Assembly (NCBI GenBank): GCA_037380845.1 | Contig: JARRRI010000057.1 | Coordinates: 1-28,830, forward strand | DNA from: Candidatus Sulfobium sp. | GTDB lineage: Bacteria > Nitrospirota > Thermodesulfovibrionia > Thermodesulfovibrionales > UBA6898 | DNA: 28,830 nt | Direction: 5' to 3' | Part shown: piece after piece, positions 202 through 28,799 of the stretch | Position numbering within the stretch: the first letter of the stretch is position 1 | Layout of the letters: every line of letters begins with the position of its first letter | Notes under the pieces: generated by a model | What the model saw: the letters and a program-made list of their open reading frames with translations, nothing else | Told to the model about the DNA's origin: nothing | The model's database searches: none | Made by a program: the position numbers and the translations under genes

Positions 202-220
202 GCCGTTCATATATTCTGTT

Positions 221-11387: not shown

Positions 11388-11516
11388 ACCAGGCGATTGA
11401 TAGTGTCAGCGCAGGCGGCTATGATTTTTACATATACGACACACCGCCTCATCACGGGCGTCCCCTGATTAAACCGGTCGGGGAGGAAGACTTCGGACTT
11501 AAGCCGCGAGGAAGAT

Positions 11517-11927
11517 ATGCACTATTCTCATATCGAAGATGCATTCATGTTTGTGAGCATGTCTCCTCCTGAGGAGAACTTCGCTTACCTCAACAGAGAA
11601 ACAGGGGAGACCTACTTTGTTTCAACATTGGGCGACTCTGATGAACTCCCGGAAGATTTTGAGGAAAACGATAAATACATGAGTATTCCCCACAAGAATG
11701 ATCTGGACCTCGGCAGGAAGCTGGTCTTCCAATTTATCTCTGTCAATCTTCCGGACGAGATCAGGAGAGTGCAGGAAATTTTCGGCAGAAAAGGAGCATA
11801 TGCCCGCTACAAGGACCTGCTGGAGTCAAAGGGGCGGCTTGAGGACTGGTATGAGTTTGAAGACAAGGCAACAGAAAAGGCGCTTCGGGAATGGTGCGGT
11901 GATAACGGCGTCGAACTGGAGGACTAG
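11517..11927 (+). CDS. UPF0158-family protein
   Basis: 'YLNRETGET', 'F.RKGAYARYKDLL...G.LEDWYEFE......LREWC.DNG'. GAGGA RBS. Confidence 0.8.
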   Translation: MHYSHIEDAFMFVSMSPPEENFAYLNRETGETYFVSTLGDSDELPEDFEENDKYMSIPHKNDLDLGRKLVFQFISVNLPDEIRRVQEIFGRKGAYARYKDLLESKGRLEDWYEFEDKATEKALREWCGDNGVELED

Positions 11928-12101
11928 TCCTGCCTGATCGAGTCAACGCCCCCTGCTTCCATTCCGCCGCCAAAAAGTAGAGCCCGTCGCAATAGTATGA
12001 CTTTACCTCCCCGCAGGTGCCTTATAATCCGTTCGGAGTCTCCGGATGACAACCGGTCACCGGTTGCATGGAATTAGCCCGGTTCATCCCTTCCGGAAAG
12101 T

Positions 12102-12110
12102 TGGTATAAT
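12102..12110 (+). promoter_or_regulatory. Extended -10 promoter upstream of nnr
   Basis: TG-G-TATAAT about 30 bp before ATG 12141. Confidence 0.5.
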
Positions 12111-12140
12111 TCGGGTATATTGTTTTTAGAGGGGGCGGAT

Positions 12141-13718: not shown

Positions 13719-14416
13719 TGAACAGGCTCATCTTCCCGGAAAACCTTAAGGGACGGGTCAGCGCTTTTTTTACCGGCAAGAGCCCTGGAGCCGACACCGG
13801 GGAGATCGCCCGGACCCTGAAGGCCGGTGAGGGGACATTCTATCTTCCCATCCAGAAGCATACCGACAAGGTGATGGTGCTGGAGTCCTCGAGAGAGCCA
13901 AAGATTGCAGACGCCGTGATCACGCGGGAGACCGGGGTGATCGTGGGGGTGCAGGTCGCCGACTGCGTGCCGATTCTGGTCTATGACCCGAAGAGGGAGG
14001 TCATGGGCGCGGTCCACGCCGGATGGAGGGGCACGGCAGAAGGGATATTGAGGAATGTGGTCCGTACCATGACGGAGAGGTTCAGGACCGACGCCAAAGA
14101 CGTCCTCGTTGCGATCGGGCCCGGCATAAGGTGGTGCTGCTACGAAGTAGGTTATGACGTGGTGCGGGCAGTGGGCCGGGCAACCGGCGAAGGCGATTAT
14201 GTTCTCCTCAAGGGCGAAAAATATTGTCTCGACCTCCCCACGGCAAACAAATATCAGGCCCTGTCAATGGGAGTTCCCGAGGCCGGCATATGGATTTCGG
14301 GGGAGTGTACTTTCTGCAATCCGGACAAATACTTTTCCTACAGATATGCGAAGGGCTCCACGGGAAGGCAGGGCGGCTTCATCGGCAAGGTCCGTAATGA
14401 TCCGGCGGTTCCATAG
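13718..14416 (+). CDS. pgeF: YfiH/PgeF-family protein (purine nucleoside phosphorylase/laccase-domain)
   Basis: QKH, ADAVIT, VADCVPIL, AVHAGWRG, GPGIRWCCYEVG, CTFC, FSYR. Confidence 0.93.
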   Translation: MNRLIFPENLKGRVSAFFTGKSPGADTGEIARTLKAGEGTFYLPIQKHTDKVMVLESSREPKIADAVITRETGVIVGVQVADCVPILVYDPKREVMGAVHAGWRGTAEGILRNVVRTMTERFRTDAKDVLVAIGPGIRWCCYEVGYDVVRAVGRATGEGDYVLLKGEKYCLDLPTANKYQALSMGVPEAGIWISGECTFCNPDKYFSYRYAKGSTGRQGGFIGKVRNDPAVP

Positions 14417-14750
14417 TCCTTTTGGAGGCGTTAAATCAGGGAACTCCCGATTGTTTCCCTTCGGGACGAACATAACGGCGTTCTACGGTCTCCAAAAAGT
14501 CCTTCCTGAAGTGCATCTGCTCCTCCCGCGCAGTCCCGGAACAATTTTTCCGGTGTCCATGGTAAAATTACCTTAAAATTAATCAAAAAATGAGTGGACA
14601 ACCGCGGACCCGGGATGAAGGCCTCCGGATCAACAGAATGTGATATCGCAGAAATCAGACGTTTGTGATGCGCGGATGAACCGGGCGGAACCGGTATTTT
14701 TCAGTCAGGTCGCCGGTCTTTAAAATAATAGCTGGAATAAAGAGGTTCTG

Positions 14751-15200
14751 ATGATCAAAGCGAAAGACATTATGACTACCGACGTGATTACCGTCACCCC
14801 CGAAACGACCGTTGAGGAGCTCGGCAGACTGTTTATCGAAAAGCGGATAAGCGGCGCACCCGTGATCGACGACGATAACAAGCTATACGGAATTGTCACC
14901 GAGAACGATCTGATTAAACGGAACGAGCGGTTTCACATCCCCACCCTGGTGAGGCTTTTCGACGCCTTCATCCCCCTGGGGGGTGATTCTTCGATTGAAA
15001 AGGAGATCAAACGGATGTCCGCGTCGAAGGTATCGGAGATATGCGCAAGGGATGTAGTTACCGTCGGGCCTGAAACGCCTCTGACCGACATTGCAACCAT
15101 GATGTCCGAAAGGGGCCTTCATCTGTTGCCGGTGGTAAGCGCCGGAAAGCTCGTGGGGATCATAGGAAAGATGGACGTAATAAAAGGGACGGTGGAGTGA
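14751..15200 (+). CDS. CBS domain protein
   Basis: Two CBS repeats: 'AKDIMT..VITV.P', 'ISGAPVID...LYGIVTENDL', 'LLPVV..GKLVGIIGKMD'. Confidence 0.93.
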   Translation: MIKAKDIMTTDVITVTPETTVEELGRLFIEKRISGAPVIDDDNKLYGIVTENDLIKRNERFHIPTLVRLFDAFIPLGGDSSIEKEIKRMSASKVSEICARDVVTVGPETPLTDIATMMSERGLHLLPVVSAGKLVGIIGKMDVIKGTVE

Positions 15201-15640
15201 AGCTCCTGAGCGGGAGCAGTGAGGAGACGGAGGAGATAGGTTACAGACTGGGGCGGATCCTTAAGGCGGGTGACGTGGTGGGACTTTACGGCGATCTGGG
15301 GGCCGGCAAGACCACTATGGTAAAGGGTATCGCCAGGGCGTTTGGGATAGACAGGCGCGACGTTACAAGCGCCAGTTTTACCATCATCGCCGAGTACGGA
15401 AGCACTCCGCCCTTCTATCACATCGATCTTTACCGCGTGGGCGAAGGGGAGGATCTGGACAATGCGGGAATATGGGAATGTATCGGGGGGAGGTCGGTTT
15501 CCGTTGTCGAATGGGCCGAGAGACTTGGAAAGCCTCCCGTCAAGGGTTTTATCACGGTAAAAATAGAGGATGGCGGAAAAGAAGACATTCGTGAAATAAC
15601 GATTGAAGGCATAGATGAAAAAGATTGGGATAATCTGTAA
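15197..15640 (+). CDS. tsaE: tRNA t6A biosynthesis ATPase TsaE
   Basis: GDLGAGKTT, VTSASFTI, YHIDLYR, VVEWAE. Confidence 0.95.
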   Translation: MKLLSGSSEETEEIGYRLGRILKAGDVVGLYGDLGAGKTTMVKGIARAFGIDRRDVTSASFTIIAEYGSTPPFYHIDLYRVGEGEDLDNAGIWECIGGRSVSVVEWAERLGKPPVKGFITVKIEDGGKEDIREITIEGIDEKDWDNL

Positions 15641-16466
15641 ACCCGGGAGACCCGAACCCGGAGAGATATTGCGGGAACTTTTGCCCTGGCTGAGGCGCAA
15701 GGGGTATGAGACTTTTGTCGACCGGGAGGCTGCCGGAGCCCTTAATATCGAAGGGTTCACGAGAAAAGAGATCGCTTCCAGCGTCGATGTGGTCTTTGTC
15801 CTGGGTGGTGACGGAACTATGCTCTCGGTGAGCAGGGCGGTCGCGGAGAAGGGAGTGCCCATACTCGGAATCAATCTGGGGAGCATGGGCTTTATGGCGG
15901 AGATCAATAAAGACGAGCTTTATGAGGTAGTGGACGGGATCCTCTCAGGCGACTGCGCGATCGAGGAACGCCTGATGCTGACGGCGAAAATCCGGAGGAA
16001 CGGTGAGCAGATAGCCGGATACACGGTCCTGAACGATGTAGTGATAAACAAAGGAGCCCTGGCCCGGATAATAGATATGGAGACATTCATAAACGGCAAG
16101 TACGTGACCACATTCAAGGCAGACGGCCTTATCGTCGCTACGCCGACGGGTTCTACGGCATATTCCCTTTCTGCAAGCGGACCCATTGTCTATCCCACAC
16201 TGGACAGCATAGTGCTGACCCCGATCTGTCCCCACACTCTTACCAACAGACCGATCCTGCTGCCCCACGATTTCGGTATAGAGATAGTCCTGAGGACCTT
16301 GAGCGAGGACGTGTATCTGACACTGGACGGTCAGATCGGCGCCCCTCTCAGGATGGACGATGTGATAGAGATTGGCCGGGCGGACTATAAAACCAGACTC
16401 CTGATCCCTTATGAGAGAGACTATTTCGAAATATTGCGGAACAAGCTTAGATGGGGAGAGCGGTAG
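15615..16466 (+). CDS. nadK: NAD(+) kinase
   Basis: LGGDGTML, GINLGSMGFM, LNDVV, ADGLIVATPTGSTAYSLSASGP. Confidence 0.96.
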   Translation: MKKIGIICKPGRPEPGEILRELLPWLRRKGYETFVDREAAGALNIEGFTRKEIASSVDVVFVLGGDGTMLSVSRAVAEKGVPILGINLGSMGFMAEINKDELYEVVDGILSGDCAIEERLMLTAKIRRNGEQIAGYTVLNDVVINKGALARIIDMETFINGKYVTTFKADGLIVATPTGSTAYSLSASGPIVYPTLDSIVLTPICPHTLTNRPILLPHDFGIEIVLRTLSEDVYLTLDGQIGAPLRMDDVIEIGRADYKTRLLIPYERDYFEILRNKLRWGER

Positions 16467-16467
16467 T

Positions 16468-17247
16468 ATGGATGCCGGCAAGGGTAAACGGAGCATAATC
16501 GAGGATCTCAAGTCCATGTTGGAATTCTACGAGGCAATGGGGCTTGAAAAGCTGCCCATCGAACTCAGGGACCCCCCCGGTGAGGCAGGTTTTGTTCCAC
16601 CCGGAAAGGGGAAATCTTTTGTCTCATCCCGGAAGCGCGAGGCCGCCAGCAGCCGGAATTCCGGCGGACAGACTCAACAGGCTGCGGAAAAGGCGGGACT
16701 GCTGAAGGCCCTCAGGGATGAACTGGGAGATTGTGTGCGGTGCAAGCTCTCCGGGGAGAGGAAGAACATAGTCTTCGGCGATGGGAATCCGGGCGCCGCC
16801 CTGATGTTTATCGGAGAGGGTCCGGGGAGGGAGGAAGATATTCAGGGGCTGCCGTTTGTGGGAGACGCGGGCATGCTTCTTAGCAAGCTGATAGAGAAGA
16901 TGGGACTCAAGAGAAAAGATGTGTATATAGCAAATATAGTTAAGTGCCGGCCTCCAGGGAACCGCGATCCGGAAGAGGACGAAGTCGCGACGTGCCGGCA
17001 GTTTATCGATGCCCAGATAGAGATTATAAAACCCCGGGTCATCATGACCCTGGGCAGGATAGCCCTTCAGACCCTGCTCGAAAATCCGCGGCTGAAGATA
17101 TCCGCCGCGAGGGGGAACTTCACTGATTACCGCGGCATCCCGGTTATGCCGACCTTTCACCCTGCCTACCTGCTGCGTAACCCGAGGGACAAATGGCTCA
17201 CCTGGGCCGACGCGCAGAAGGTAATGGAAAGACTGCATATCGGCTGA
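16468..17247 (+). CDS. Uracil-DNA glycosylase, family 4
   Basis: Fe-S cysteines (CVRC, KCRPP..RDP, C), IGEGPG, PFVG.AG, TFHPAYLLR. Confidence 0.93.
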   Translation: MDAGKGKRSIIEDLKSMLEFYEAMGLEKLPIELRDPPGEAGFVPPGKGKSFVSSRKREAASSRNSGGQTQQAAEKAGLLKALRDELGDCVRCKLSGERKNIVFGDGNPGAALMFIGEGPGREEDIQGLPFVGDAGMLLSKLIEKMGLKRKDVYIANIVKCRPPGNRDPEEDEVATCRQFIDAQIEIIKPRVIMTLGRIALQTLLENPRLKISAARGNFTDYRGIPVMPTFHPAYLLRNPRDKWLTWADAQKVMERLHIG

Positions 17248-17413
17248 AGCGGAAATTTTACCTGATCTCGCAGAAACGCGGAAGGAACGCCGAAAAAGTC
17301 TTGTAATAGGGAAGAGATGTGACCTTCTTTGGATAACGCTCCCGCCTCCGGCACCCCCCTCTTAAGATAAGTCGAAGCGACCTTCGCGGGTATCCAGGTT
17401 CTCCTAAGAAAAA

Positions 17414-17443
17414 TGGATTATCGACTATTACCTCGGGAATGAC
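17414..17443 (+). repeat. REP-like palindromic repeat, copy 2 (degenerate)
   Basis: TGGATTATCGACTATTACCTCGGGAATGAC. Confidence 0.75.
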
Positions 17444-17489
17444 GGCCCATAAGCATTTTCGGGGAGCAATGTTAGTGCCTACCCGCTGG

Positions 17490-18797
17490 TCAGTCTTCCT
17501 CCGGTACCGGGCTGCGGGATGTGGCCAATATAATGCCCTGTCCGGGACTCAGGTCGTATGAAAAAGGAGACGGCACATCTTCCAGCCGGTTTTCAGGAGA
17601 GATGTCAGTAAGGGGGGTCCCGGTTTGAAAGTATGTCTGAAGGTCGTCGGCATGAAAACGCTGGCTGTTATGGATGTCCTTGTTCAGGATCAGGAGGGAT
17701 TCCTCCTGTGTGTGGCTCGAAGCCTTCCACATCAGCAGCACGTTGCTGTTATCGTAGTGAGGTAATTCCGTGGATGCGTCCTCCTGAAAGATAATGTGGC
17801 CGCTCTTGATCCCGTTGACCGTCTTTATATAATCGGTGAGATCGATGTCCGTCTCCTCCCAGTCTTCCGGCCTCGTCTTTACTACGTGCGGCCTTTTCCG
17901 GAAACCGAACTCGAAGCCCATGGGCATCATCAGTCCTCCCGAAAAGAGGGCAGCGAAGAGATAGCGTTGTTTGAGCCCCTCCACGTTGCCGTTGAGCTCC
18001 TCGCAAAGCCTTACGGTATCGTGGCTTTCCGGGAAACTTATAGACGGGACGATATCACGTGTCAGGGCATACTGTTTCATCAGCCAGGGGCTCCTGAAGT
18101 CCCACCATTTCGAGCTGTTGAATATATAATCGAACCCCGCACGGGCTGTTTTTATTGTAAGGTCCGGCGGACAGCCCAGGGTCTCGGCAAAAAAGAGGAT
18201 GTCGGGATGCTTTTCCCTCGTCTCATGGATCAGCCTTTCCCAGAGGCTTCGGGGCAACTGGTAGGCGGCATCGCAGCGGAAACCCGAGAAGCCGAGTTCT
18301 ACAAGGGAAGTCACAACCCTGAAGCAGAAGCCGTAAAGCCCTTCCTTGTCCCGCGTATTCCTGTGGTCGAACTTTGCCAGGTCCTTCCAGACCACCTTTT
18401 TACCGTTTTCGTCTGCGAAGGGATGGGCAACTCTGCCTTTACCTTCCCATTCAAACCATTCCGGATGTTCCTTAAGGAGGGCGGAGTCGGTGCTGCAGTG
18501 GTTAATGACCAGATCGACCATGACCCTGAGACCCATCTTTTCCGCGGACGCTATCGCTGCCTTGACCTGTTCCCGCGGCGGAGAGGAACTTTCATTGTCT
18601 ACAAGCAGAGGATTAAAGTTGAAATAATCGGCTATGGAGTAGATGCTCCCGGATTTTCCGGTTGCCTGTATGGGATTGACGAAGACCCAGTTGAAGCCCA
18701 TTTCGGCGGCCCTCGACAAGTGGCGCTCCCAGTCTGAAAAATTTCCGGCAAGCAGCGGGAAGAGATTGTAGATTATCATTTTTTCTGGTGGTCTCAT
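17490..18797 (-). CDS. GH13 alpha-amylase-family protein (GlgE-like catalytic domain)
   Basis: GH13 regions DLVINH, GFRCDAAY (nucleophile Asp), FAETLG (acid/base Glu) and ESHD. 'GSIYSI.D' and 'HPEWF' resemble GlgE. AAGGAG RBS. Confidence 0.88.
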   Translation of the reverse strand: MRPPEKMIIYNLFPLLAGNFSDWERHLSRAAEMGFNWVFVNPIQATGKSGSIYSIADYFNFNPLLVDNESSSPPREQVKAAIASAEKMGLRVMVDLVINHCSTDSALLKEHPEWFEWEGKGRVAHPFADENGKKVVWKDLAKFDHRNTRDKEGLYGFCFRVVTSLVELGFSGFRCDAAYQLPRSLWERLIHETREKHPDILFFAETLGCPPDLTIKTARAGFDYIFNSSKWWDFRSPWLMKQYALTRDIVPSISFPESHDTVRLCEELNGNVEGLKQRYLFAALFSGGLMMPMGFEFGFRKRPHVVKTRPEDWEETDIDLTDYIKTVNGIKSGHIIFQEDASTELPHYDNSNVLLMWKASSHTQEESLLILNKDIHNSQRFHADDLQTYFQTGTPLTDISPENRLEDVPSPFSYDLSPGQGIILATSRSPVPEED

Positions 18798-18844
18798 GTC
18801 TTCTCCTTTAGTAACTTACAGTCCAGCCAATCTGTATGAAAACC

Positions 18845-18874
18845 TGGATTCCCGACTACTACCTCGGGAATGAT
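18845..18874 (+). repeat. REP-like palindromic repeat, copy 3
   Basis: TGGATTCCCGACTACTACCTCGGGAATGAT. Confidence 0.8.
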
Positions 18875-18931
18875 TTTTTTCAACTTTAAGATTAACTTAT
18901 CAGGATTCTTTTCGTCAGCATAGAAGAAAAT

Positions 18932-20011
18932 TTATTCGCCCTTTCTACGCAAATAAAATTGTCTGCACGCCTCATCAACCAGCTTTTTATTCTGAGCGAG
19001 TACGGCGAGCCAGTAGTTCATTCTTTCGGCGTTTGTCCTGTCCCGCCAGTGATCAAATAAAAAGGCTGCGTCCTCAAGCGGAGTCCTGCCTTCGCCGGGA
19101 TGTATTTCAAGTGAGAAGGATATCTGATCCGGAGGCAGGATTTCAAGAGACTGCCTGACGATCGATGAAAGGCCCGAAAGGCCGTACATGAGGTCCAGAG
19201 ATCCCTTGTCCCTGAATTGAAAGGGGAGGGGTACGGTTTCCAGAAAGCTCATGTGGTCCGATACGCCGAAGACACTGGAGGATGAAAGGGGATGGCCGTC
19301 ATGGAGGTGGAAATGGAGCGGCTTTCCCAGTGTCCCCAGTTCCCTGACGACACGAAGGGTTTCGGGCAGCGCCGCCTCGACGGCGTAAGAGATGTCTTCC
19401 ATAAGACCCTTCAAACCTGGATCATCAGTCCTTATCTCGCAGACGTCCCTGCCGGCATGCATTTCTGAAAATATTTTGCGAATCTTCCATATCCCCACGT
19501 GACCGGTATCTATGCAGGCGCTGACATTCTTAAGTCCGCGTATACGGCTAAAGAGATTGATGAATACTTCAGTATCCAGCCCGGATGCGTATTCTATAAA
19601 CAGGTAAACCCCGTCCCCGCCCCGGACCATGGAGTCCAGTTCCCTCAGGGCGTCTGTATAATCGTCCGTCCGGTTCACTGCTTCCGCCTGATCATGAACG
19701 ACGAGACCGTAAATTCGGCCTGCCGCTTTCCCGGCGAAGTGGGCTATAGTCTCGCGTCCGGCCTGGTCCATGACATCAAGACCGCGCTGGAGATGTACGG
19801 CTGCGGGCGCTTCCGGGTAAGGTCTGAACTGCAGCAGATACTCGAGTTCCGCAGGCGTCTCCGCATAAAGCTCGGTCCCAATCTGTGCCTGACTGAAGCG
19901 CAGCCTTGCCAGATTCATAAGGGCATCGTCACCGTCCACCCTCTTTTGAAAAAGAGCAAGAATGCGCGGGCAGGAAGCTGTCCTGCCCTGTTTGCCTGCG
20001 GCCCGGTTCAC
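18932..20011 (-). CDS. Xylose-isomerase/AP-endonuclease-2-like TIM-barrel protein
   Basis: Candidate metal-ligand motifs FIEY, CIDTGH, HFHLHDGH, SDH and SLEIH. GTG start overlaps the PWD stop. Confidence 0.72.
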   Translation of the reverse strand: MNRAAGKQGRTASCPRILALFQKRVDGDDALMNLARLRFSQAQIGTELYAETPAELEYLLQFRPYPEAPAAVHLQRGLDVMDQAGRETIAHFAGKAAGRIYGLVVHDQAEAVNRTDDYTDALRELDSMVRGGDGVYLFIEYASGLDTEVFINLFSRIRGLKNVSACIDTGHVGIWKIRKIFSEMHAGRDVCEIRTDDPGLKGLMEDISYAVEAALPETLRVVRELGTLGKPLHFHLHDGHPLSSSSVFGVSDHMSFLETVPLPFQFRDKGSLDLMYGLSGLSSIVRQSLEILPPDQISFSLEIHPGEGRTPLEDAAFLFDHWRDRTNAERMNYWLAVLAQNKKLVDEACRQFYLRRKGE

Positions 20012-23000
20012 GGTATCCCCTGCTGGGGCCTTGACTGGACCAGACAGATCTCTTCTCCGGAGATTATGCCTTCGATGTCCTGCGGCTTTCCGAGACGTTC
20101 CTCCACGTACACAGCAATATTCGTGAGTCTTTTCCCCATGTCTTTTCTGAATTTTTCATCCGTCGAAAACCTGGTCCGGGAATAATCCATTACTTCCCTT
20201 GTTATTCCCCCATCGGGGCCGGGCAGGAAGGCCTGGCTGAAGCTCGCAAAGGAGAGCATCCGTGCTCCGGCTGCATGCCTGCTGCACACCATGCGGTAGG
20301 GTGTTCCCGGCAGTCTGCCGGAAGCGAGGACCTCGCCCAGTCCTGCTGCCAGTTCGATATACACCTCATCGCGCTCCCCTGTGACGGGGTTAACGGTGTG
20401 GATGATAAAGGCATAGTCAGGCACCCTCATCTCCTGAACCAGCACTGCCATATGGGCATCTCCGTGAGGGACCCCGAGCTGTGCCCTGTTCATTACGGCC
20501 CTCTTCGTCCAGAGGGAAGCCCAGACAGACCTGACCGCGTCACCAATCCCTTCTGCCGAAACATTTGCGACACTCTCGTAAAGACCGGCCCCCGACAGAC
20601 CTTCCAGATCTTCGCAGTTGGAGCTGGACCTTACCATCAATCTCTTCCCGGGTCCGAACGTTTTTCCCACGGCCGGTAGTAATCCATCAGGTGTTTTCGT
20701 GACCGCCATTATCTTCCTCATCCGGGCCAGTATGTCGTCCGTCTCTGCCGCCCCGGCATTGTCCAGTCTCCCGATAAGAGATCGGTATTCTCTTCCGAGT
20801 TCAGGGCTCTTCTTCAGGCACTCTTCCATCACGCCGAAAGGTATTGCCGCACTCTTCGGAGTCGTGAAACCCGCCCCGGAGCCACTGGACAGCTCCAGAA
20901 GCCTTCTGGCTCCGAAGGCCTTTCCACCGCAGCTTTCAAGTGTAATGCCGTCTCTTTCGAGAAGTCCCTTTCCGCCGGGAGTCTCAACGGCGGGAAGTTC
21001 TACATGAGCGGCAGGAGACCGCCTCTTCGCATCATTTGTCCGGCCCCCCGAAACAGTGTATCGGACGTTTTCACCCCGGGCGTCAAAGGTTATGGTCTTT
21101 CCCTTGAGGTCCCGGAGGCCGGAAAAGACTTCTTCGTCCTCGCAGCCTGCAAATACCACTCCGGCCTGCCTGGCTCGCACCGCCAGGTGGGAGAGGTGGG
21201 GTGTCTCGTGGGGCACTACTATTGCGGCAACCACTGCCGGTATTTCCTCATCTCCCTCGACTTTTTCAAGGAGGGCGATAACAGACCGGTCACGGGCCCG
21301 GGACAGGCCGGAGAGACCCGGGGCGGGCCTCAGCCTGCCGGAAACTTTTCCCGGCACGATCACGTCCCAGGGGGGGAGGGCCGCCCTTTGCCTGACAACC
21401 TTCAGCAGGAAGCCGGCAAGCTTCGAGAGCTGGAAGACCGGATGGCCCCGTATCTCCGATTCGGTGAATACCCTTACCGCCCGCTGATCGACGCCCAGCG
21501 CATGACCGAGTCTTTCGGCCCTTTCCGGAAAGAGGGACATTACTGTCTGCGTGTAGGCTTCGGAAAGCCTCAGGCTCCTGTCCACAGTCGCCTTGAGTCT
21601 GAGAAGCCGGTATCGGCTGCTGTCGTCGAATCCCTGTCGCCACGCCTCGAGTTCGGACACGATTGCCCGGCATTCCTCACGGTCGAACCCGCCGATCCGC
21701 AGATTTTCCACTGTCAGTCCCAGGCAGCGAAGGGCGCGCTCCCACGGGACCGCCTTATGAGATCTTAAGTCGCCGAAAATCCTGCTTACGAGGACAAAGG
21801 AGAAATCCTCCATGCCGGTATCGGCCGCCGTCAATTGCTGGGCCTCGGAGTCGTCCCTGCCCCGGCGGCGAACGGCGAAGAGTTCGCGGAGGCGGGTGAG
21901 AAGTTCGAATGCCTCCGTCAGGCCTTCGGAATCTTTCGCCGATGCCTTTGCGTCAAGGAAGCGGTGTATGATGCCGGCCTCCTCTTCGCCTGAAATCCGC
22001 GCGACTGCTTCAAGCTGCTCATCGAGGGACCGGGCGTTAAAGAACTCTTTCAGCTCTTCATGGAATTTCCTGAACTCCCCGATGAAGGAAGAGGGGTAGT
22101 CGGCGCCGGGAGATGTGATTCTCTCCAGGAGGCGGGATGAAGTCTCAAGGTCCTCCGGCCCGGCATTACGATGGAGCTTGTTCTGAAGGGTAGCCTTGAT
22201 CTCCCGCTTCAGCTCCTGGGGGATATCATTTCTGTGGGCGATGTCACGTATCCGCGTCAGGGGCTCGGCCCGGAGGAAGTCGCTGTCGAAGGAGGGTAGC
22301 CAGGGGTAGATCTTTCTGATGATAAAGGAGTTTTCCGGTGTCTCCATCCTGGCGAGGCGACCGAATATGTCTTTTGCCATCCGGGCATGATGGGAAGGCC
22401 GGTAGTGGCTGCCGTCTTCCGTGACCTTTACCTGACCGGTGCCCAGAAAACGAAGATAAATCGCCAGGTAGACAAGCTGCTCCCTGGTGAGGTCCGGCGC
22501 ACCGTTCGAAAAGAGATCGTGCACCCAACTGAGCTTTTCCCGCCAGCTCTTCCGTTTCCTGTCCGCGAGGGCGATGACGCGCGCAAAATCGCCTCCGGGT
22601 ATTTCCGGCTTCGGCGCCGCGGTCGCTTTGGGAGAAACGCCGATTATGGACAGGAGCCTGTTTCTCGCCTCATCGATCAGCCGGGGAGGGTCGGGCCATT
22701 GTTCAAGGATGAGGGAACCGGAGAATCTTCTCTTCTTCAGCCGGTCGATCAACCCTCTTATGCCGGAATCGTCCTTTGCGGACGGCCCCGTAAAAAGAGG
22801 AAGGTGTCTGTCGGAGTCGCCGTAATTTTCATGGAGATGAGCATGGATGATCGGCAGGTCCCCGTCGAGGAGATCAATATACCGGAGGTAATCATTGCGG
22901 GTAGCCCGGCAGATGTTGGCATGCCCCAGGTCGAGGCACATTCCGGCGGAGGGTTTTCCCCCGGTGTCATGCCCCAGAAGACGGAAGAGTTCGTTGAAAT

Positions 23001-23445
23001 CATCCGGCGTGGTCTCGGTCGTATTCTCTATCGAGAGGCTAATCCCTTTATCGGAAAGTTCATTAATGACCGGACGGACCGCTTCGGCGAAGGCCGCGGC
23101 CCCTTTTTCCTTATAGAAGTGTATGTTCATGACCACGGCCCCGATGTCACGGGCGAGACTCAACGCACGCTCCATTTCGACTTCCGACCCCTGCGTGAAG
23201 GGGCTCCATCGCCACGGGACGTGAACGGACAAACGGATGTCGTGTGCGGCAGCCGTATCTTTTATATAGACGCGCGTTTCTTCCCCGAGGTCCCCTTCAG
23301 ACCAGCCTTCTCCGCTTTCTTTCCTGTCCGGAAACCACTCGAAGGCGTCGAACCCGTTCGCTACGGCGTATTCGAAGGGCTCCGTGATGCTTCCGGCAAA
23401 CCAGGCGGTCTGGTTGCCTATTCTGAAGCCCTTTTTCTCACCCAT
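20008..23445 (-). CDS. Phosphoglucan, water dikinase (PWD/GWD3)-like protein with N-terminal TIM barrel
   Basis: PWD signatures AIYLRFLGTGQ...EDGSHYRPSHHA and PLTRIRDIAHRNDIPQELKREIKATLQNKLHRNAGPEDL; phospho-His motif PHLSHLAVRARQ; nucleotide-binding VRSSSNCEDLEGLSGAGLYES...PQDIEG...VQSRPQ. Confidence 0.9.
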   Translation of the reverse strand: MGEKKGFRIGNQTAWFAGSITEPFEYAVANGFDAFEWFPDRKESGEGWSEGDLGEETRVYIKDTAAAHDIRLSVHVPWRWSPFTQGSEVEMERALSLARDIGAVVMNIHFYKEKGAAAFAEAVRPVINELSDKGISLSIENTTETTPDDFNELFRLLGHDTGGKPSAGMCLDLGHANICRATRNDYLRYIDLLDGDLPIIHAHLHENYGDSDRHLPLFTGPSAKDDSGIRGLIDRLKKRRFSGSLILEQWPDPPRLIDEARNRLLSIIGVSPKATAAPKPEIPGGDFARVIALADRKRKSWREKLSWVHDLFSNGAPDLTREQLVYLAIYLRFLGTGQVKVTEDGSHYRPSHHARMAKDIFGRLARMETPENSFIIRKIYPWLPSFDSDFLRAEPLTRIRDIAHRNDIPQELKREIKATLQNKLHRNAGPEDLETSSRLLERITSPGADYPSSFIGEFRKFHEELKEFFNARSLDEQLEAVARISGEEEAGIIHRFLDAKASAKDSEGLTEAFELLTRLRELFAVRRRGRDDSEAQQLTAADTGMEDFSFVLVSRIFGDLRSHKAVPWERALRCLGLTVENLRIGGFDREECRAIVSELEAWRQGFDDSSRYRLLRLKATVDRSLRLSEAYTQTVMSLFPERAERLGHALGVDQRAVRVFTESEIRGHPVFQLSKLAGFLLKVVRQRAALPPWDVIVPGKVSGRLRPAPGLSGLSRARDRSVIALLEKVEGDEEIPAVVAAIVVPHETPHLSHLAVRARQAGVVFAGCEDEEVFSGLRDLKGKTITFDARGENVRYTVSGGRTNDAKRRSPAAHVELPAVETPGGKGLLERDGITLESCGGKAFGARRLLELSSGSGAGFTTPKSAAIPFGVMEECLKKSPELGREYRSLIGRLDNAGAAETDDILARMRKIMAVTKTPDGLLPAVGKTFGPGKRLMVRSSSNCEDLEGLSGAGLYESVANVSAEGIGDAVRSVWASLWTKRAVMNRAQLGVPHGDAHMAVLVQEMRVPDYAFIIHTVNPVTGERDEVYIELAAGLGEVLASGRLPGTPYRMVCSRHAAGARMLSFASFSQAFLPGPDGGITREVMDYSRTRFSTDEKFRKDMGKRLTNIAVYVEERLGKPQDIEGIISGEEICLVQSRPQQGIP

Positions 23446-26400
23446 GTTCGACGCCCACCTGCGGCCGGGCCTGAACGACGTGGAATTTTCCTCCGGAGAA
23501 CGCCCCCTCTATGTCCTGGGGAGCTCCAAGCGCCTTCTCAATGACTTCGCCTATTTCGGCGACGCCGGTCATGAAGCCCCGGCGGAAGTCCGTATCCCAG
23601 ACCATCTTTTCGTCGCTATAATCCAGGACGACACGCCTGGGTTCGGGCAGCATGAAGCTGTCGTAAAGGCCGGCCCCCGCATACCCCTCGATGTCTTCTC
23701 CGTTGGAGTCGGAGCGAAAGGTAAGACCGCCTCCGAAGAGACCGATACTCTTGCCGGGATAAGAGAGAAGTCTCGGCGCCTTGTCTCCCTTGCCCCGCAG
23801 GAAGCTTAGGGCCTTCCCCGGGTAATTCCCGACGAGCGCCTCGCCCAGGCCCAGTACTGCTTCAGCATAGACTTCATCACGGTTTCCGGTGAAGGGATTG
23901 ACGGTATGTATGACATAACTGTAATCCGCCTCGACTATCCTCTGAATGAGCACTGCCATGTAAAGGTCCTCATGGGCAATCCCTCTGGCAATGCGGCTGA
24001 GGTAAGCCCTCCTGTTCCATTTAGATGCCCAGACTTTCTTGATGCAGGTCCACGCCTCATCCCAGTTTTCAGGCCAGGGAAGGCCCGTCCCGGTCATAAC
24101 CTCTTTCAGGGCCGCCGCGAGTTCCCCGGGAGATTCAAGATCGAGGATGGTCTCCCGGAGGCTCCCGAGGACCGCTTCGTCGCTATGCCCGTCGTTCTCT
24201 CCAAGCCTGCCGATGAGTTCCCTGCATCGCCTCGAAACGTCCTCATTCTCCCTCATCCCGAGGACCTTTTCGAAAATTCCGAAAGGAATCGCTACCGAGG
24301 CCGGAAGGTATACCCAGTCGGGCACCTTGCCGTGCATCTTTTTGATGTTGTTTGATTTCCCTCCTACAATATCCGCGGTGAAGTCCCCCATCGAAACCGC
24401 GTATTTCGAGAAAGACGGAGCGCGCGGACGGGCCTGGGCAGACCTTTTCGGCGGAGTCTCTCTTTCTTCCCGGGCAGAACCCCGCTCGAACAGTACTTCC
24501 CCGGATGCATTTATTCTGAGAGTGACGGGATTCCCCCCGAGTCTTTTCAATTCGTCAAGCTTCTCAGCGCTGTAGCATACCGCAAAGAGAACGCCGGAGT
24601 TCCTGGCCCTGATTGCCACATGTGCCAGGACGTCCGTCGGATCGGGTGTGACAAGCGCCGAGACACCCTCAGGGATTTCTTCATCTCCCGCCACCTTGTC
24701 CGAAACAATGACGGTTTTCCTTTCGAAGCGTCTGCCCTGGACGGATTTCAGCGAATCGGTCAATTCAACATATCCTCCGGCTTGCCCCGGGCTGATTATC
24801 TGCCAGTCTCCCAGTTCCGCCGCCTTTCTGAGAACCGGGTTTATTTTCTGCAGGAGCATCGAAAGGGCAAAGGCCGGAGTACCGCGTACGACCTCCTCGC
24901 TGAACAGATTGAATGTCCACTCGTCGGCCCGGAAAGCCTTGCCCATAAATTCCGCCTTCGGCTGAAGGAGGCCGTAACAGCGGTCGATAAAGGAACCGAC
25001 GCCCCGGTGAATCCTGTCGATGACGGAATCCGCGTGGAGCGCCCAGTCTCTGGAGAAGCGTTCCGTCGACGCCAGGCGCTTCCAGTGGCGGAGACAGGCC
25101 CTCAGCTCCGCGTTGTCAGCCGAGATGTCCAAGATTTCGAGCATGACTTCTATCGAGTCAGCCAGTTCGTCCCGTCCCAGGCCCTCGGCGAGGTTCCGCT
25201 CCACGACAACACGGGAGTAATCCTCCAGCGCAATGTCCAGGAAGAGAAGGTCCCTTATCCTGTCCGCATGTCCCTTCATCAATCCCCTGATGCGCCTTCG
25301 GCCCTCGACTATCTTCCGGATCAACGGAACCGGCTTCCTGTCATCCCTGTGACGCCATATATGGTCCATCAGCCCGTGCATATCAGGGTCGAAGAGATAC
25401 CTCGCAGAGTGGATGGCCGTTCCCAGGTCGGTGCCGGAATGGACCTCCTTCAGAATACCCAGAAAATGTTCGAAGTCCCCTATCAGGGCGTCCTTAAGGT
25501 GGGGAACAAAGTCAGGATGCGATACGATGGGCCGTTCGTAGCTTTCGAGACGGTCTGTGGAAAGCCCTCCTTCCTCAAGTTTATCGTAGAACCTGTCGAG
25601 GCTTCCGTTGCTCTTCAGGAAAGCGATGAAGGCCTCGCAGATTACTATATCGTCCGGGGTGGCGTTATTGTGGAGCTTCTGGTGCCATTCCTCCATGAAA
25701 TGGCCGGACACTTCCTTGATATGATGGCGGTGCATGATGTTCAGCACTTCGTCCCGCACACGCTGCGCATCGCTACCCCTCCCCAGTGTCCTGAGGATAA
25801 GCCTGATCATTTCCCGGTCTCCGGGTTCGGCGTCATATAGTCCTGCCAGTTTGAGTGTCAGTCTGTCCAGGGCGTGGCCCAGTTCCCGGGGCTTGGTATT
25901 ATAATTGCGCTGCCAGTCGAGCTGCCTGATCGACGAAAAACGCAGCCAGACGAAGATCAGGGCGAGGCCGCCGGTGTTATTCCTCACCCTGTCCAGAAGG
26001 TCATAACAGAGGTTGAAGCGGTGCATCAGTGTCCAGGAGTTGCGCCCCATCTCATGTTCGATAATCTCCTCTGCGATGTCAGACAGTTCCGGACTTCCAA
26101 GTCCTTCCATGCCAGCCGAAATGGTGAGGGGTATGTAAAAATTCCTGTCGCCGTCCTTTATCCATCTGCCGGTGTCCGGTCGGTAAAGGACAAAAGATAT
26201 ACCCGAAGGCGCATCCCCGGATGCGATTCTCAGGGTGAGGCGCAGGAGGCCGTCTTCTTCGGCGAAGGGGGTGCGGACGGCTTTCCTGTCGAAGACCTCG
26301 CTGTTTGCAGGCCGCATCGCCTTCGGCGGCATTTCCCACTCAAACCGCGAACGGACCGAAACGCCCCAATGAAGGAAAAGCGGGCCTTCCAGGTCCGCAG

Positions 26401-26917
26401 CCAGACCTGCGAAGTAATTTTCCCCGTCCTTCCAGACCGCAACCGCCAGTTCAGGGCCGTTTTCCAGCCGATACCGGCGCTTATGAAGGACTTCTTCATC
26501 CGGAAGCTCCCTTTCGAGGGCCTCCCCGGGGAGAGGAGAAGTCCTCTCCGCAGGAGGGAGGTCGATCCGGTAATTTCGTCCTCCGTTATTGTCCCACCTG
26601 TCCTCATCGGGAAAGAAAAGCACAAAGTCTATTGCGAAGAGTTCCGGGGAGCGGCCTATGGTGATAAATATCCCTCTTTTTCCGTCGTGTGCCATAAAAG
26701 GAGTCTGAACGGCCCCGTCAAGGGCCGTGGTTCCCTCCGGCCAGACCGACCGCGGGGGAGCCGTCCAGCTGCCGCGTCCCTTTAGTTGCATCCCCCAGTG
26801 GAGAATGCAGTTCTTTTCGCTCTCGATCCGTATGTCTATCCTTACGGCGGTTTCGGTTGCCGACTTGTCCACAGACAGAACTATGTCTTGTTTGCTTACG
26901 AGCGTTTCCATGGGCAT
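23438..26917 (-). CDS. Alpha-glucan, water dikinase (GWD1/SEX1)-like protein with tandem CBM45-like modules
   Basis: LMHRFN, WLRF...RQLDWQRNYNTKPRE, QRVRDEVL, MEEWHQKLHNNATPDDIVICEA, VHSGTDL; phospho-His DVLAHVAIRARN; KVWASKWNRRAY, FRSDSNGEDIEGYAGAGLYDS, QDIEG, VQARPQ. Start is 26917 or 26911. Confidence 0.92.
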   Translation of the reverse strand: MPMETLVSKQDIVLSVDKSATETAVRIDIRIESEKNCILHWGMQLKGRGSWTAPPRSVWPEGTTALDGAVQTPFMAHDGKRGIFITIGRSPELFAIDFVLFFPDEDRWDNNGGRNYRIDLPPAERTSPLPGEALERELPDEEVLHKRRYRLENGPELAVAVWKDGENYFAGLAADLEGPLFLHWGVSVRSRFEWEMPPKAMRPANSEVFDRKAVRTPFAEEDGLLRLTLRIASGDAPSGISFVLYRPDTGRWIKDGDRNFYIPLTISAGMEGLGSPELSDIAEEIIEHEMGRNSWTLMHRFNLCYDLLDRVRNNTGGLALIFVWLRFSSIRQLDWQRNYNTKPRELGHALDRLTLKLAGLYDAEPGDREMIRLILRTLGRGSDAQRVRDEVLNIMHRHHIKEVSGHFMEEWHQKLHNNATPDDIVICEAFIAFLKSNGSLDRFYDKLEEGGLSTDRLESYERPIVSHPDFVPHLKDALIGDFEHFLGILKEVHSGTDLGTAIHSARYLFDPDMHGLMDHIWRHRDDRKPVPLIRKIVEGRRRIRGLMKGHADRIRDLLFLDIALEDYSRVVVERNLAEGLGRDELADSIEVMLEILDISADNAELRACLRHWKRLASTERFSRDWALHADSVIDRIHRGVGSFIDRCYGLLQPKAEFMGKAFRADEWTFNLFSEEVVRGTPAFALSMLLQKINPVLRKAAELGDWQIISPGQAGGYVELTDSLKSVQGRRFERKTVIVSDKVAGDEEIPEGVSALVTPDPTDVLAHVAIRARNSGVLFAVCYSAEKLDELKRLGGNPVTLRINASGEVLFERGSAREERETPPKRSAQARPRAPSFSKYAVSMGDFTADIVGGKSNNIKKMHGKVPDWVYLPASVAIPFGIFEKVLGMRENEDVSRRCRELIGRLGENDGHSDEAVLGSLRETILDLESPGELAAALKEVMTGTGLPWPENWDEAWTCIKKVWASKWNRRAYLSRIARGIAHEDLYMAVLIQRIVEADYSYVIHTVNPFTGNRDEVYAEAVLGLGEALVGNYPGKALSFLRGKGDKAPRLLSYPGKSIGLFGGGLTFRSDSNGEDIEGYAGAGLYDSFMLPEPRRVVLDYSDEKMVWDTDFRRGFMTGVAEIGEVIEKALGAPQDIEGAFSGGKFHVVQARPQVGVEHG

Positions 26918-27024
26918 AGAGAGGCCCTGCCTTTCGCAGTCATAAATGGGGATGGGAAGGTATTAAACACCCTTCCCTTCATCTCCTCCGTCAAGAGAGA
27001 GGAAATTCAGAACATTCCGACTGA

Positions 27025-27050
27025 ATCTGTTAACTAATATGTTATCAGAT
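27025..27050. promoter_or_regulatory. Imperfect palindrome, candidate operator overlapping a putative extended -10 for the GWD cluster
   Basis: ATCTGTTAAC-TAATAT-GTTATCAGAT, arms 9/10 complementary. The minus strand contains TG-A-TAACAT. Confidence 0.4.
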
Positions 27051-27178
27051 TTTTGCTTTATCGCCATGAAGAGGGCGGGCTGTTTCTGCGACGGCTCCAT
27101 CTTCCCGCTTTTTTCTTTCAATATGCCCGTCTTTTTTTATAAAATAATAAAAAATATAAATAGGCGGAGGTAATAAAA

Positions 27179-27436
27179 ATGGGAGAGGACATAGAAGTAG
27201 TTTCCGTTGATAAGTCGATCAATATCAAGGGCTTGGTATGCCCTTATACTTTTGTGAAGGCGAAACTTGCCATAGAATCCATGGAAGTCGGACAGGTTCT
27301 GGAGATCCTGCTGGACTATGAGGAGGCGTCCAGAAGCATTCCCAAATCGATGGAGGACCACGGGCAGAAGGTCCTCAGGGTCGAAAAGATAAATGACACG
27401 GACTGGAAACTTTTGATCAGAAAGGACAGGGAATAG
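27179..27436 (+). CDS. TusA/SirA-family sulfur carrier
   Basis: 'GLVCPY..VKAKLAI..ME.GQVLEILLD' with the CP motif. GGAGGT RBS. Confidence 0.9.
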   Translation: MGEDIEVVSVDKSINIKGLVCPYTFVKAKLAIESMEVGQVLEILLDYEEASRSIPKSMEDHGQKVLRVEKINDTDWKLLIRKDRE

Positions 27437-28239
27437 TGGATTTTACCGACGAGCAGGTCCTGCGGTACAGCAGGCACATCATACTTCCTGAGGTGGGGGG
27501 CAAGGGACAGGCCAGGATAGCGGAGGCGAAGGTCTTTATTATAGGCGCCGGGGGGTTGGGCTGCCCTGTAGGTTATTATCTTACCGCTGCCGGCGTGGGT
27601 ACGATAGCCATGATCGACAATGACACTGTCGAGATCAGCAACCTTCAGAGACAGATTGCTCACAGCATGGATACCATCGGGATGCCTAAGGTTGAGTCTG
27701 CAAAAAAGACTTTTGAGGCCCTTAACCCCGATGTTAACATTGTGGCTCTGAAGAAGAGAATATCGAAGGACGATATCCTCGGCCTGATCAGTGATTATGA
27801 TATAGTTGTGGACGGCAGTGATAATTTTCCGACGAGATATCTTGTCAACGATGCCTGCGTCATGGCGAAGAAACCGCTTGTGAGCGGGGCGATCCTTAGG
27901 TTCGAGGGGCAGGTGACGACGATAATGCCCGGTGAGGGTCCGTGTTACAGGTGCCTCTTCGAGGAACCGCCTCCCCCGGGGCTGGTGCCGTCCTGTCAGG
28001 AGGCGGGCGTCCTTGGAGTTCTGCCGGGGGTAATCGGCGGCCTGCAGGCGACCGAGGTCCTGAAACTCATCCTGGGGAAGGGAGACATCCTCAAGGGTGA
28101 GTTGCTGATATACAACGCCCTGAAGACAACGTTCAGGAAAGTAAAAGTGCCGAAGAACCCTTCTTGTCCGTTATGCGGAGAACATCCCGCCATTACGGAG
28201 CTGATAGATTACAACGATGGCTATTGCACGATGCAGTAG
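27436..28239 (+). CDS. moeB: MoeB/ThiF-family (E1-like) adenylyltransferase, no rhodanese domain
   Basis: RYSRHIIL, IGAGGLG, SNLQRQ, DGSDNFPTRYLVND, CYRC, SCQEAGVLG, CPLC. Confidence 0.9.
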   Translation: MDFTDEQVLRYSRHIILPEVGGKGQARIAEAKVFIIGAGGLGCPVGYYLTAAGVGTIAMIDNDTVEISNLQRQIAHSMDTIGMPKVESAKKTFEALNPDVNIVALKKRISKDDILGLISDYDIVVDGSDNFPTRYLVNDACVMAKKPLVSGAILRFEGQVTTIMPGEGPCYRCLFEEPPPPGLVPSCQEAGVLGVLPGVIGGLQATEVLKLILGKGDILKGELLIYNALKTTFRKVKVPKNPSCPLCGEHPAITELIDYNDGYCTMQ

Positions 28240-28385
28240 CTTGCAAAGGGCTGCGAACGGGGGCACGGTACAGGCAACACCGGGTTAAGCCGGAGCTCGG
28301 GCGACCGGCCGGAGTACCGGTCTATCCTGCTGTTGCCGCATGCGGCTTTCCGTTTGCGGCTTCTTTATGTGGCTATACGATATAA

Positions 28386-28799
28386 ATGTCGTCATTGATT
28401 ATTCCACGGACCATTTTCGACAGAATCATCTCCCACTGCGTCTCGGTCTATCCGGACGAGGCTTGCGGGATATTGGCCGGGGAAAAGGACACAGTCCGAA
28501 AGATTTACGAAATGACAAATTCCGAACCGTCGCCTGTAAGTTATTTCATGGACCCGAAGGAACAGTTTCTGGCCATGAAAGAGATGAGAAGGAGAGGACT
28601 GCATATGATGGCTGTTTACCATTCGCATCCGTCTTCACCCCCTTATCCTTCGGCGAAAGACGTGAGCCTCGCCTCTTATCCTGATTCGCTCTACATCATC
28701 GTGGGTCTTTCCGATAAGGACAGACCAGAAGTGCATGCATATACGATTGTCGAGGGGAAGGTAAGCGAAGCGGAGATGGAAGTCCTCCCCGGATCTTAA
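28386..28799 (+). CDS. M67/JAB (JAMM) metallopeptidase, Mec-like
   Basis: PDEACGIL (catalytic Glu) and YHSHP..PPYPSAKD (HxH...D Zn motif). Confidence 0.92.
   Translation: MSSLIIPRTIFDRIISHCVSVYPDEACGILAGEKDTVRKIYEMTNSEPSPVSYFMDPKEQFLAMKEMRRRGLHMMAVYHSHPSSPPYPSAKDVSLASYPDSLYIIVGLSDKDRPEVHAYTIVEGKVSEAEMEVLPGS

Follow-up and report, generated by a model that had tools for sequence, protein, structure and literature searches.

A conserved bacterial gene cluster joining glucan-dikinase cores to TIM barrels, with a proposed role in the phosphorylation and mobilisation of alpha-glucan

The stretch of DNA analysed here, referred to as the window, is 28,830 nucleotides long and represents one whole contig (C57; JARRRI010000057.1) of the 3.18-Mb metagenome-assembled genome (MAG) of Candidatus Sulfobium sp. 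(Nitrospirota), which has a completeness rating of 100% and whose host is described as a marsh sulfur bacterium. Its minus strand carries four consecutive genes encoding an alpha-glucan, water dikinase of the GWD family (open reading frame 1, ORF1; 23438-26917; protein p1, 1159 aa), a TIM barrel fused to a second glucan-dikinase core (ORF2; 20008-23445; p2, 1145 aa), a second, divergent TIM barrel designated TIM-B (ORF3; 18932-20011; p3, 359 aa) and an enzyme of glycoside hydrolase family 13 (GH13) (ORF4; 17490-18797; p4, 435 aa). A preliminary description of this DNA had claimed four co-directional ORFs, and the same four were recovered, with an overlap of 8 bp between p1 and p2 (23438-23445), an overlap of 4 bp between p2 and p3 (20008-20011) and a spacer of 134 bp between p3 and p4. 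We propose that the cluster is a conserved bacterial operon for the ATP-driven phosphorylation and mobilisation of an intracellular alpha-glucan, and we consider this reading to be rather probable.

The proposal begins with p1, in which all five GWD domains are present and Pfam recognises Ig_N_CWD1 twice, GWD1_pHisD (PF22973, E 1.2e-32) and PPDK_N (PF01326, E 1.9e-28). The domains, which like all features of the cluster lie on the minus strand, are a first immunoglobulin (Ig) domain resembling carbohydrate-binding module 45 (CBM45) (26528-26896, residues ~8-130, borders estimated; Ig_N_CWD1), where Leu-His-Trp-Gly and further Trp columns are conserved (alignment A1), a second CBM45-like Ig domain (26126-26479, residues 147-264), which holds the best Ig_N_CWD1 stretch, a GWD-specific helical central domain (24818-26116, residues 268-700), a phosphohistidine domain (24488-24805, residues 705-810; PF22973) with the catalytic His766 (codon 24620-24622), and a C-terminal nucleotide-binding domain (23441-24430, about residues 830-1159), which PPDK_N matches in two stretches and which has conserved motifs in common with eukaryotic GWDs. 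For residues 268-700, the match to the central domain of potato GWD1 known from crystal structures (9ha9, 9qvi) has an E value of 2.5e-87, and the alignment takes in residues 12-466 of PDB entry 9ha9. Cotton GWD1 (P0269) is ~42% identical to p1 and carries the same Pfam families plus DUF7067, with Ig_N_CWD1 marking its two CBM45 regions. Over ~1000 residues, p1 is 40-42% identical to the GWDs of cotton, Cyanidium, Picocystis and Mesostigma. Of 1.84 billion representative proteins searched, 560 matched p1 at E <=1e-30, and the best 150 of these include eukaryotic GWDs with 36-44% identity over ~1000 residues. The named eukaryotic relatives are cotton GWD1 and proteins of Cyanidium, Picocystis, Gloeochaete, Stentor, Mesostigma, Auxenochlorella, Chromera, Vitrella and Effrenium, together with those of Rhodomonas, Diacronema and Cymbomonas. 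The protein of Effrenium voratum (P0340, 2106 aa) has an isoamylase-like GH13 module fused to a complete GWD.

At the level of single residues, H766 of p1 falls in the column of cotton H1076 and is invariant across 13 bacterial homologues, and E674/E675/R678, 92 residues before it, align with cotton E984/E985/R988. In potato GWD1 (StGWD1), E900/E901/R904 likewise lie 92 residues before His992, and a section of PMC13553574 proposes them as proton donor and stabiliser. Models of phosphoenolpyruvate (PEP) synthase and rifampicin phosphotransferase in NCBIfam matched only the ATP domain of p1, at best with 76.8 bits, and scored at best 121.5 bits with p2, against cut-offs of 598-1700, and Pfam found no match to PF00391, the PEP-utilizers mobile domain, in either protein. 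The Pfam families, the match to 9ha9, the identity to eukaryotic GWDs and these scores far under cut-off all bear out the earlier claim that ORF1 belongs to the GWD family. It is neither a PEP synthase nor a rifampicin phosphotransferase, the outcome that the preliminary description had named as refuting its claim. Judged by its sequence, p1 is thus a genuine GWD-family dikinase, and its dikinase chemistry is predicted from homology and the conserved residues.

Compared with GWD1 (SEX1/R1; EC 2.7.9.4; StGWD1 9HA9/9QVI), p1 has the same five-domain order and keeps both the catalytic His and the Glu-Glu-x-x-Arg helix proposed for phosphate transfer. However, it is ~300 residues shorter, lacks the transit peptide and, according to Pfam, the DUF7067 inserts beside the Ig domains, and is encoded in an operon with TIM barrels. 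Where the plant Cys-Phe-Ala-Thr-Cys stretch beside the catalytic His has a pair of Cys residues, p1 has a single Cys, and since the pair is reduced to one, redox control of the plant type appears unlikely. The copy of p1 in the ESM Atlas begins at the third residue, a Met (window 26909-26917), and the true start codon may lie 6 nt downstream of the listed one.

The second dikinase, p2, is 27-29% identical to p1 and belongs to a separate clade with full support. Its N-terminal TIM barrel, TIM-A (22591-23445, residues 1-285), is recognised by Pfam as AP_endonuc_2 (residues 24-262) and bears a ligand set like that of endonuclease IV (Endo IV). It is followed by a divergent central domain (21376-22578, about residues 290-690) with aligned motifs and a match to 9ha9 of E 1.8e-6 over p2 534-687, by a phosphohistidine domain (GWD1_pHisD, PF22973; 21052-21369, residues 693-798), in which H753 (codon 21187-21189) falls in the catalytic-His column, and by a nucleotide-binding domain (20020-20934, residues 838-1142), which PPDK_N matches in a single stretch (profile positions 3-310). 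The motif order in this last domain is PEP-synthase-like, an acidic Gly-Ala-Gly-Leu-Tyr motif preceding Val-Trp-Ala-Ser in p2 and coming after it in p1 and all GWDs. Relatives of p2 make up 1564 protein clusters, and all 120 of those listed have the architecture of p2. The preliminary description had missed the barrel and had taken ORF2 to be a phosphoglucan, water dikinase (PWD/GWD3; EC 2.7.9.5). Like PWD, p2 is a second, divergent paralogue that stands beside a GWD, has both a His and an ATP domain and is smaller in its central domain, but the PWD architecture was not found: Pfam gave no match to CBM_20 in p2, in a scan that did detect CBM_20 in the metagenome protein P0320, and in the place of this module stands the barrel, which is metal-dependent by its ligand pattern. 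P0320 (1213 aa), the one protein with CBM20 that the searches brought up, has two such modules and yet lies within the GWD clade beside green-lineage sequences, and therefore CBM20 alone is no marker of PWD.

Both TIM barrels were modelled with AlphaFold (AF2) as (beta/alpha)8 barrels (pLDDT 87.8 for TIM-A and 89.5 for p3), p3 having in addition a beta-hairpin region and a long C-terminal helix. Foldseek assigned both to the xylose-isomerase-like TIM-barrel fold with a probability of 1.00. The top matches of TIM-A were 3wqo (MJ1311; tagatose-3-epimerase-like), psicose/allulose ketose 3-epimerases, UlaE and the apurinic/apyrimidinic (AP) endonuclease of African swine fever virus (ASFV), while p3 had many Endo IV entries near the top and also matched AP endonucleases and ketose epimerases. 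The two barrels are homologous to each other (hhalign probability 93.9%). At 21 bits, p3 is under the AP_endonuc_2 cut-off of 31.1, and a comparison of p3 with PDB sequences, by single sequence and by profile, gave nothing at E <=1 except one chance-level row. Neither barrel reaches a curated subfamily cut-off, the match of p2 to the CbiR model (E 2.9e-8) also being under the cut-off of that model.

In alignments of sequences from related loci, H75, H109, E140, D172, H175, H201, H203, H205, D212, H214 and E248 of TIM-A are invariant (53 sequences; alignment A2) and sit at or just after the ends of the strands in the AF2 model, and p3 has an invariant set of His, Asp and Glu residues (30 sequences; alignment A3). 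By profile, H109/E140/D172/H175 of TIM-A align to residues 109/145/179/182 of Escherichia coli Endo IV (H109/E145/D179/H182), H75 aligns to the His of a Val-His-Ala-Pro stretch in Mycobacterium tuberculosis Endo IV, and the His...Asp-x-His stretch, which with a following Glu also has its positions in Endo IV, aligns to the corresponding stretch in the ASFV AP endonuclease. Counting H203 (or H201 or H205) once, TIM-A has nine putative ligands, presumably arranged in the same order and at the same spacing as the nine of the Endo IV three-metal site. TIM-A and p3 have the TIM-barrel fold in common with Endo IV and the other AP_endonuc_2 proteins (CbiR, ketose 3-epimerases, UlaE, MJ1311), but their gene context gives no pointer to DNA repair. 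Since phosphate esters block exo-acting enzymes, a GWD-type system needs a phosphatase, and because of this need, the ligand set, the gene linkage and the lack of a eukaryotic-type glucan phosphatase in the host genome, where no DSPc-type phosphatase was found, we tentatively read TIM-A and p3 as phosphoglucan phosphatases, an assignment that we would call possible rather than probable. The role proposed for them would be that of SEX4, LSF2 and laforin, which combine a dual-specificity phosphatase fold with a CBM; the coupling to dikinases is alike, but TIM-A and p3 have no sequence or fold relationship to those enzymes.

For p4, Pfam finds hDGE_amylase and Alpha-amylase, and the best PDB matches are the small alpha-amylase 3dhu, with which D176 and E205 align, and the GlgE structure 5cgm. 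D95, N99, H100, R174, D176, E205, H259 and D260 are invariant in 38 sequences, and we take them to represent the four conserved regions of this family with its Asp-Glu-Asp catalytic set. Judged by them, p4 belongs to GH13 and its catalytic site is intact. It reached no NCBIfam equivalog cut-off and is 65-86% conserved across phyla, which is above p1. Like GlgE, the maltosyltransferases and the small alpha-amylases of GH13, p4 has all four conserved regions, but it is only 435 aa long, has no N-terminal or CBM domains and is sometimes fused to a TIM barrel. As to the remainder of the genome, which the preliminary description had suggested should be checked for glucan genes, the host has a rich alpha-glucan toolkit comprising two synthases of glycosyltransferase family 5 (GT5), a GlgC-like gene whose score of 417.9 bits is under the cut-off of 424.9, two GT35 genes, an island of GH13 and GH57 genes, and MalQ.

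The cluster is not peculiar to this contig. A pattern scan with one genome per GTDB species confirmed 414 relatives of p1, and the best 80 of the 414 loci were analysed. A separate protein search gave 1734 protein clusters for p1. The 80 loci come mostly from Nitrospirota/Thermodesulfovibrionales and Desulfobacterota, with single records from Verrucomicrobiota, Acidobacteriota and Deferribacterota and one labelled archaeon. In 9 of them p1 is cut by the contig end and 22 have <6.5 kb downstream, leaving 49 that could be scored for modules. The synteny survey proposed earlier thus found TIM-A, the second dikinase, p3 and p4 all downstream of p1 in 25 of the 49, TIM-A with p4 in 7, TIM-A with the second dikinase and p3 in 3, TIM-A alone in 2, p4 alone in 2, and, in one locus each, TIM-A with p3 and p4, TIM-A with the second dikinase, and the second dikinase with p3. 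A second barrel accompanies the second dikinase in 30 of the 31 complete-view loci having that dikinase. Fusion of TIM-A to the dikinase is the rule, the two being split in five loci, and other fusions also occur, namely TIM-A-second dikinase-p3 (L051, L060), p3-p4 (six loci) and TIM-A-p4 (L075).

The coupling of TIM-A to p1 is also apparent at the level of genomes. When 300 further Nitrospirota genomes were sampled evenly, 13 proved to have p1, and TIM-A was present in 11 of these 13 and in none of the 287 genomes without p1; as related genomes are not independent, no statistical claim is attached to these counts. In one family, p1 and TIM-A are not neighbours but lie on separate contigs or, where they share a contig, at a distance of 650 kb. 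The latter arrangement occurs in G106, a one-contig Nitrospirota assembly, where the TIM-A gene lies between NmrA-like and JAB genes (L099), 650 kb from the GWD homologue, and where the GWD homologue is followed by two glycosyltransferase (GT4) genes on the same strand (L100; G106:C1:667000-686999, 6235-12287). The distribution of p1 is patchy, and of 20 other genomes in the window's own family 6 were found to have it. When the 727 remaining ORFs of the 80 loci were clustered without bias, the most recurrent neighbours were a DUF4912 protein (13), a GH57 branching enzyme (13), a GT4/GT5-like transferase (11), a GT35 phosphorylase (9), another GH57 enzyme (7) and a GT5 glycogen/starch synthase (7). 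In 13 of the 80 loci (L047:14710-15540 and 12 others) the DUF4912 protein, which is uncharacterised, recurs downstream of the cluster next to the GH57 branching enzyme, and it is a candidate for membership in the glucan neighbourhood.

The contig is not a chimera. A second, independent MAG of Candidatus Sulfobium sp. (L003) shows collinearity with window 13353-28783, across the cluster and both flanks, with a nucleotide identity of 76-82%, and both cluster borders are bridged by contigs of sequencing run X1, which may be the source sample. The only breaks in the X1 contigs are at a short repeat within the p3-p4 spacer and at a single position in p1. As described previously, the flanks consist of ordinary bacterial genes; here these were found to be nadK, UDG, tsaE, nnr, pdxJ, acpS and hypF/hypD/hypE on one side and genes for a ThiF/MoeB and a JAB protein on the other. 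In G304, of the same genus, p1 sits between MoeB and UDG with identical spacing, and MoeB adjoins p1 in three other genomes of the family in all (G304, G307, G315). No clean insertion site could be defined, the UDG and MoeB genes not being adjacent in other genera of the family.

The relationship to the eukaryotic enzymes was examined with two trees. The first (FastTree) had 122 rows, made up of the 99 of 150 representatives that covered p1 residues <=330 to >=1120, the p1 and p2 of the window, 7 named bacterial proteins, 6 locus translations and 8 p2 relatives; the base of its GWD clade is a polytomy of three eukaryotic groups and bacterial groups. For the second (IQ-TREE, LG+G4), the long-branch sequences P0355 and P0377 were dropped and the rest thinned by hand to 60 rows. 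There, all eukaryotes are joined with an SH-aLRT of 94 and, in the free quick search, are nested among bacterial-like rows, several of the 'bacterial' rows being unnamed metagenome proteins. The GWD clade, with p1 and all named eukaryotic GWDs, is split from the p2 family with a support of 100. A tree holding the non-eukaryotic GWD rows as one clade was 59 log-likelihood units above the free quick-search tree (p-AU 0.959), and with the constrained tree better by that amount, any stated direction of transfer between bacteria and eukaryotes was rejected. On the suggested bacterial origin of the eukaryotic pair, the trees show no more than that p1 belongs to a deep and diverse bacterial clade and is nested in no eukaryotic subgroup, and therefore was not captured recently from an alga. 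We would go further only as speculation, namely that the GWD/PWD pair originated side by side in an operon of this kind and that one or both later passed to eukaryotes, and that bacteria have a complete, self-contained and reversible glucan-phosphorylation machine, with Endo-IV-like barrels replacing dual-specificity phosphatases, in hosts that store a semi-crystalline, starch-like glucan. Taken jointly, these claims are distinctly unlikely to all hold.

In the mechanism that we propose for the operon, p1 would bind the glucan via its two CBM45-like domains, autophosphorylate His766 from ATP and transfer the beta-phosphate to a glucosyl hydroxyl, by analogy with GWD1 that at C6, and so loosen packed chains. 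The paralogous dikinase p2 would then use His753 to add a second kind of phosphate ester, possibly at C3 like PWD, and p4 would cut or transfer the exposed chains. In the boldest step, TIM-A and p3 would act as metal-dependent phosphoesterases that strip the glucan-bound phosphate and allow degradation to continue. Such a system would correspond in function to the breakdown of transitory starch in plants (GWD, PWD, amylases, SEX4/LSF2) and would be built in part from unrelated components. The preliminary description held the system to be intracellular, and it looks so, the N-termini being unlike signal peptides when judged by eye rather than by a signal-peptide predictor.

Several observations weigh against this reading. 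The hosts of all 80 listed loci are metagenome-assembled genomes, and none of the modules was found downstream of p1 in 7 of the 49 scorable loci. Among the sampled Nitrospirota, p4 orthologues (>=59% identity) occur in 12 genomes, 6 with p1 and 6 without, and are missing from 7 of the 13 genomes with p1, and because of this p4 is not specific to the system. The specificity for C6 or C3 is not readable from sequence, and that these bacteria contain an insoluble or crystalline glucan is an assumption. As for the barrels, Foldseek ranks ketose 3-epimerases and UlaE level with or above Endo IV for TIM-A, the closest solved relative MJ1311 has no assigned function, and phosphatase activity is proposed from ligand pattern and context. 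Moreover, fusing a kinase to a phosphatase that acts on what the kinase makes would serve no purpose unless the positions they act on differ.

Other explanations must be considered alongside. The one set out in the preliminary description, that ORF1 and ORF2 are a bacterial GWD1 and PWD acting in sequence (C6, then C3 on the pre-phosphorylated glucan) with the barrel and the GH13 enzyme as mere accessories, deserves serious attention, although we do not expect it to hold. The catalytic His and a GWD-like central domain are kept in p2, and the automatic names given by JGI are 'phosphoglucan, water dikinase' for 47 of the 120 relatives listed for p2 and 'alpha-glucan, water dikinase' for 39 of the 120 listed for p1. 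Furthermore, the ESM Atlas cluster nearest to p2 290-1145 (score 0.97) is from Streptophyta, has PPDK_N and GWD1_pHisD, and bears CBM_20 in 12% of its members, p1 preferring another plant cluster (0.95 vs 0.92). These names and scores are leads only, and are to be set against the missing CBM20 and the barrel at the p2 N-terminus. No plant PWD was among the best 150 representatives of the p1 search or the best 120 matches to p1 or p2. A further lead is that the motif order of p2 is the canonical one, which plant PWD presumably has as well. A kinship of p2 with PWD is only hinted at. The barrels, for their part, are not accessory, because TIM-A is of all the partners the one in tightest linkage with GWD and is often present without the second dikinase.

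A narrower alternative concerns what the barrels do. They could be isomerases or epimerases of sugars or sugar phosphates, or some other non-hydrolytic enzyme, working on released phospho-sugars or glucosyl units. This we regard as somewhat unlikely. It would be in keeping with the top Foldseek matches of TIM-A to 3wqo, the psicose/allulose 3-epimerases and UlaE, with the predominance of such enzymes in AP_endonuc_2, and with the four epimerase ligands (Glu, Asp, His, Glu) being a subset of the conserved set; but the additional invariant residues H75, H109, H175, D212 and H214 appear to match the positions that make Endo IV a three-metal phosphoesterase, and a GWD system logically requires a phosphatase, for which the genome offered no DSPc candidate. 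The same superfamily also includes CbiR, a proven phosphodiesterase that acts on cobamide and not on DNA, as stated in a portion of PMC7733943. We give little credence to the possibility that the phosphorylated glucan is an end product, for instance a storage or envelope polymer in modified form or a reserve of phosphate, or that the dikinases regulate solubility during synthesis. Synthases and branching enzymes do recur among the neighbours, besides phosphorylase, and two GT4 genes follow p1 in G106, but the tie to a GH13 hydrolase or transferase and to putative phosphoesterases suits turnover better, and according to reviews the known GWDs all serve mobilisation. Scarcely credible, finally, are a substrate other than glucan, as for rifampicin phosphotransferase or phenolic phosphate synthetase, and an origin of the genes in eukaryotic contamination, a chimera or recent algal transfer. 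The ATP and His domains are indeed common to PEP synthase and rifampicin phosphotransferase, and a figure legend in PMC6260743 suggests lateral transfer of bacterial GWDs. However, the CBM45-like and central domains on the substrate side are GWD-specific and highly conserved, the ORFs overlap, the same bacterial flanks are found in independent MAGs, the cluster occurs in two one-contig assemblies (G106) and in the 4.7-Mb chromosome record of a MAG (L053), and p1 lies in a bacterial clade that is nested in no eukaryotic subclade.

In the literature on starch, GWD counts as a hallmark of those eukaryotes whose stored glucan is crystalline. A statement in PMC6260743 confines GWD to starch accumulators, and the legend mentioned above remarks on bacterial GWD genes as possible lateral transfers. 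That remark was all that we found in the literature on bacterial GWD; supplements were outside the search, and their trees may show more. No description was found there of the operon, its TIM-barrel partners, the fusion architecture or the biochemistry, and the word dikinase is absent from 300,000 of the 445,374 characters of a 2024 review of prokaryotic alpha-glucan enzymes. According to a passage of a 2026 review (PMC13666283), the prokaryotic machinery behind glycogen phosphate is unknown. A review also cites earlier work in which the potato R1 protein was expressed in E. coli to study glycogen phosphate. The genes themselves are already labelled automatically in IMG. The operon points to an unstudied bacterial route of phosphorylating stored glucan for its mobilisation. 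Because it is conserved in hundreds of bacterial species, tests can be made of whether the storage glucan of bacteria is phosphorylated and resembles starch, of what takes the phosphate off where an enzyme of the laforin/SEX4 type is lacking, and of the source of the eukaryotic GWD and PWD. Compact, intron-free and redox-independent GWDs could also help to make phosphorylated starch.

Several smaller features of the window were also seen. A 24-nt palindrome resembling repetitive extragenic palindromes (REP-like) is found at 18848-18871 in the p3-p4 spacer, at 17417-17440 just downstream of p4 and at 1852-1875, so that two of the three copies in the window flank p4 on both sides. A pattern scan of the genome gave ~50 copies at <=3 mismatches (31 forward, 19 reverse) and none for a control pattern. 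At the copy in the p3-p4 spacer, word depth is raised and assembly contigs are broken, and directly behind it, at 18873, one contig each of runs X10 and X1 has an 18-nt insertion, which is a spacer length polymorphism or a strain variant. The other break, inside p1 (25896-25926), where X1 contigs end and restart with an overlap of ~30 nt, coincides with a bump in word depth, which suggests a short sequence common to another place or strain. Scans of 17000-27600 for sigma-70 promoters and terminators gave sites no more numerous than in shuffled sequence. Among the runs listed as containing the stretch there was no RNA run, which tells neither for nor against expression.

Upstream of p1 and divergent from it (26918-28799) are a small ORF that was labelled tusA in the preliminary description, the ThiF/MoeB gene and the prokaryotic JAB gene, which are likely to be a sulfur-carrier set. 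The left end of the window (1-3936) is low in G+C (0.41-0.47), and two ORFs without any Pfam family (122-922, plus strand; 3124-3936, minus strand) are located there around a gene for a Clp1-like P-loop protein (1986-3053). Between this region and the cluster, window 4115-9377 contains hypF, hypD and an hypE-like gene of the AIR-synthase family, followed by a gene for a DUF6982 protein with a weak LSM-like match.

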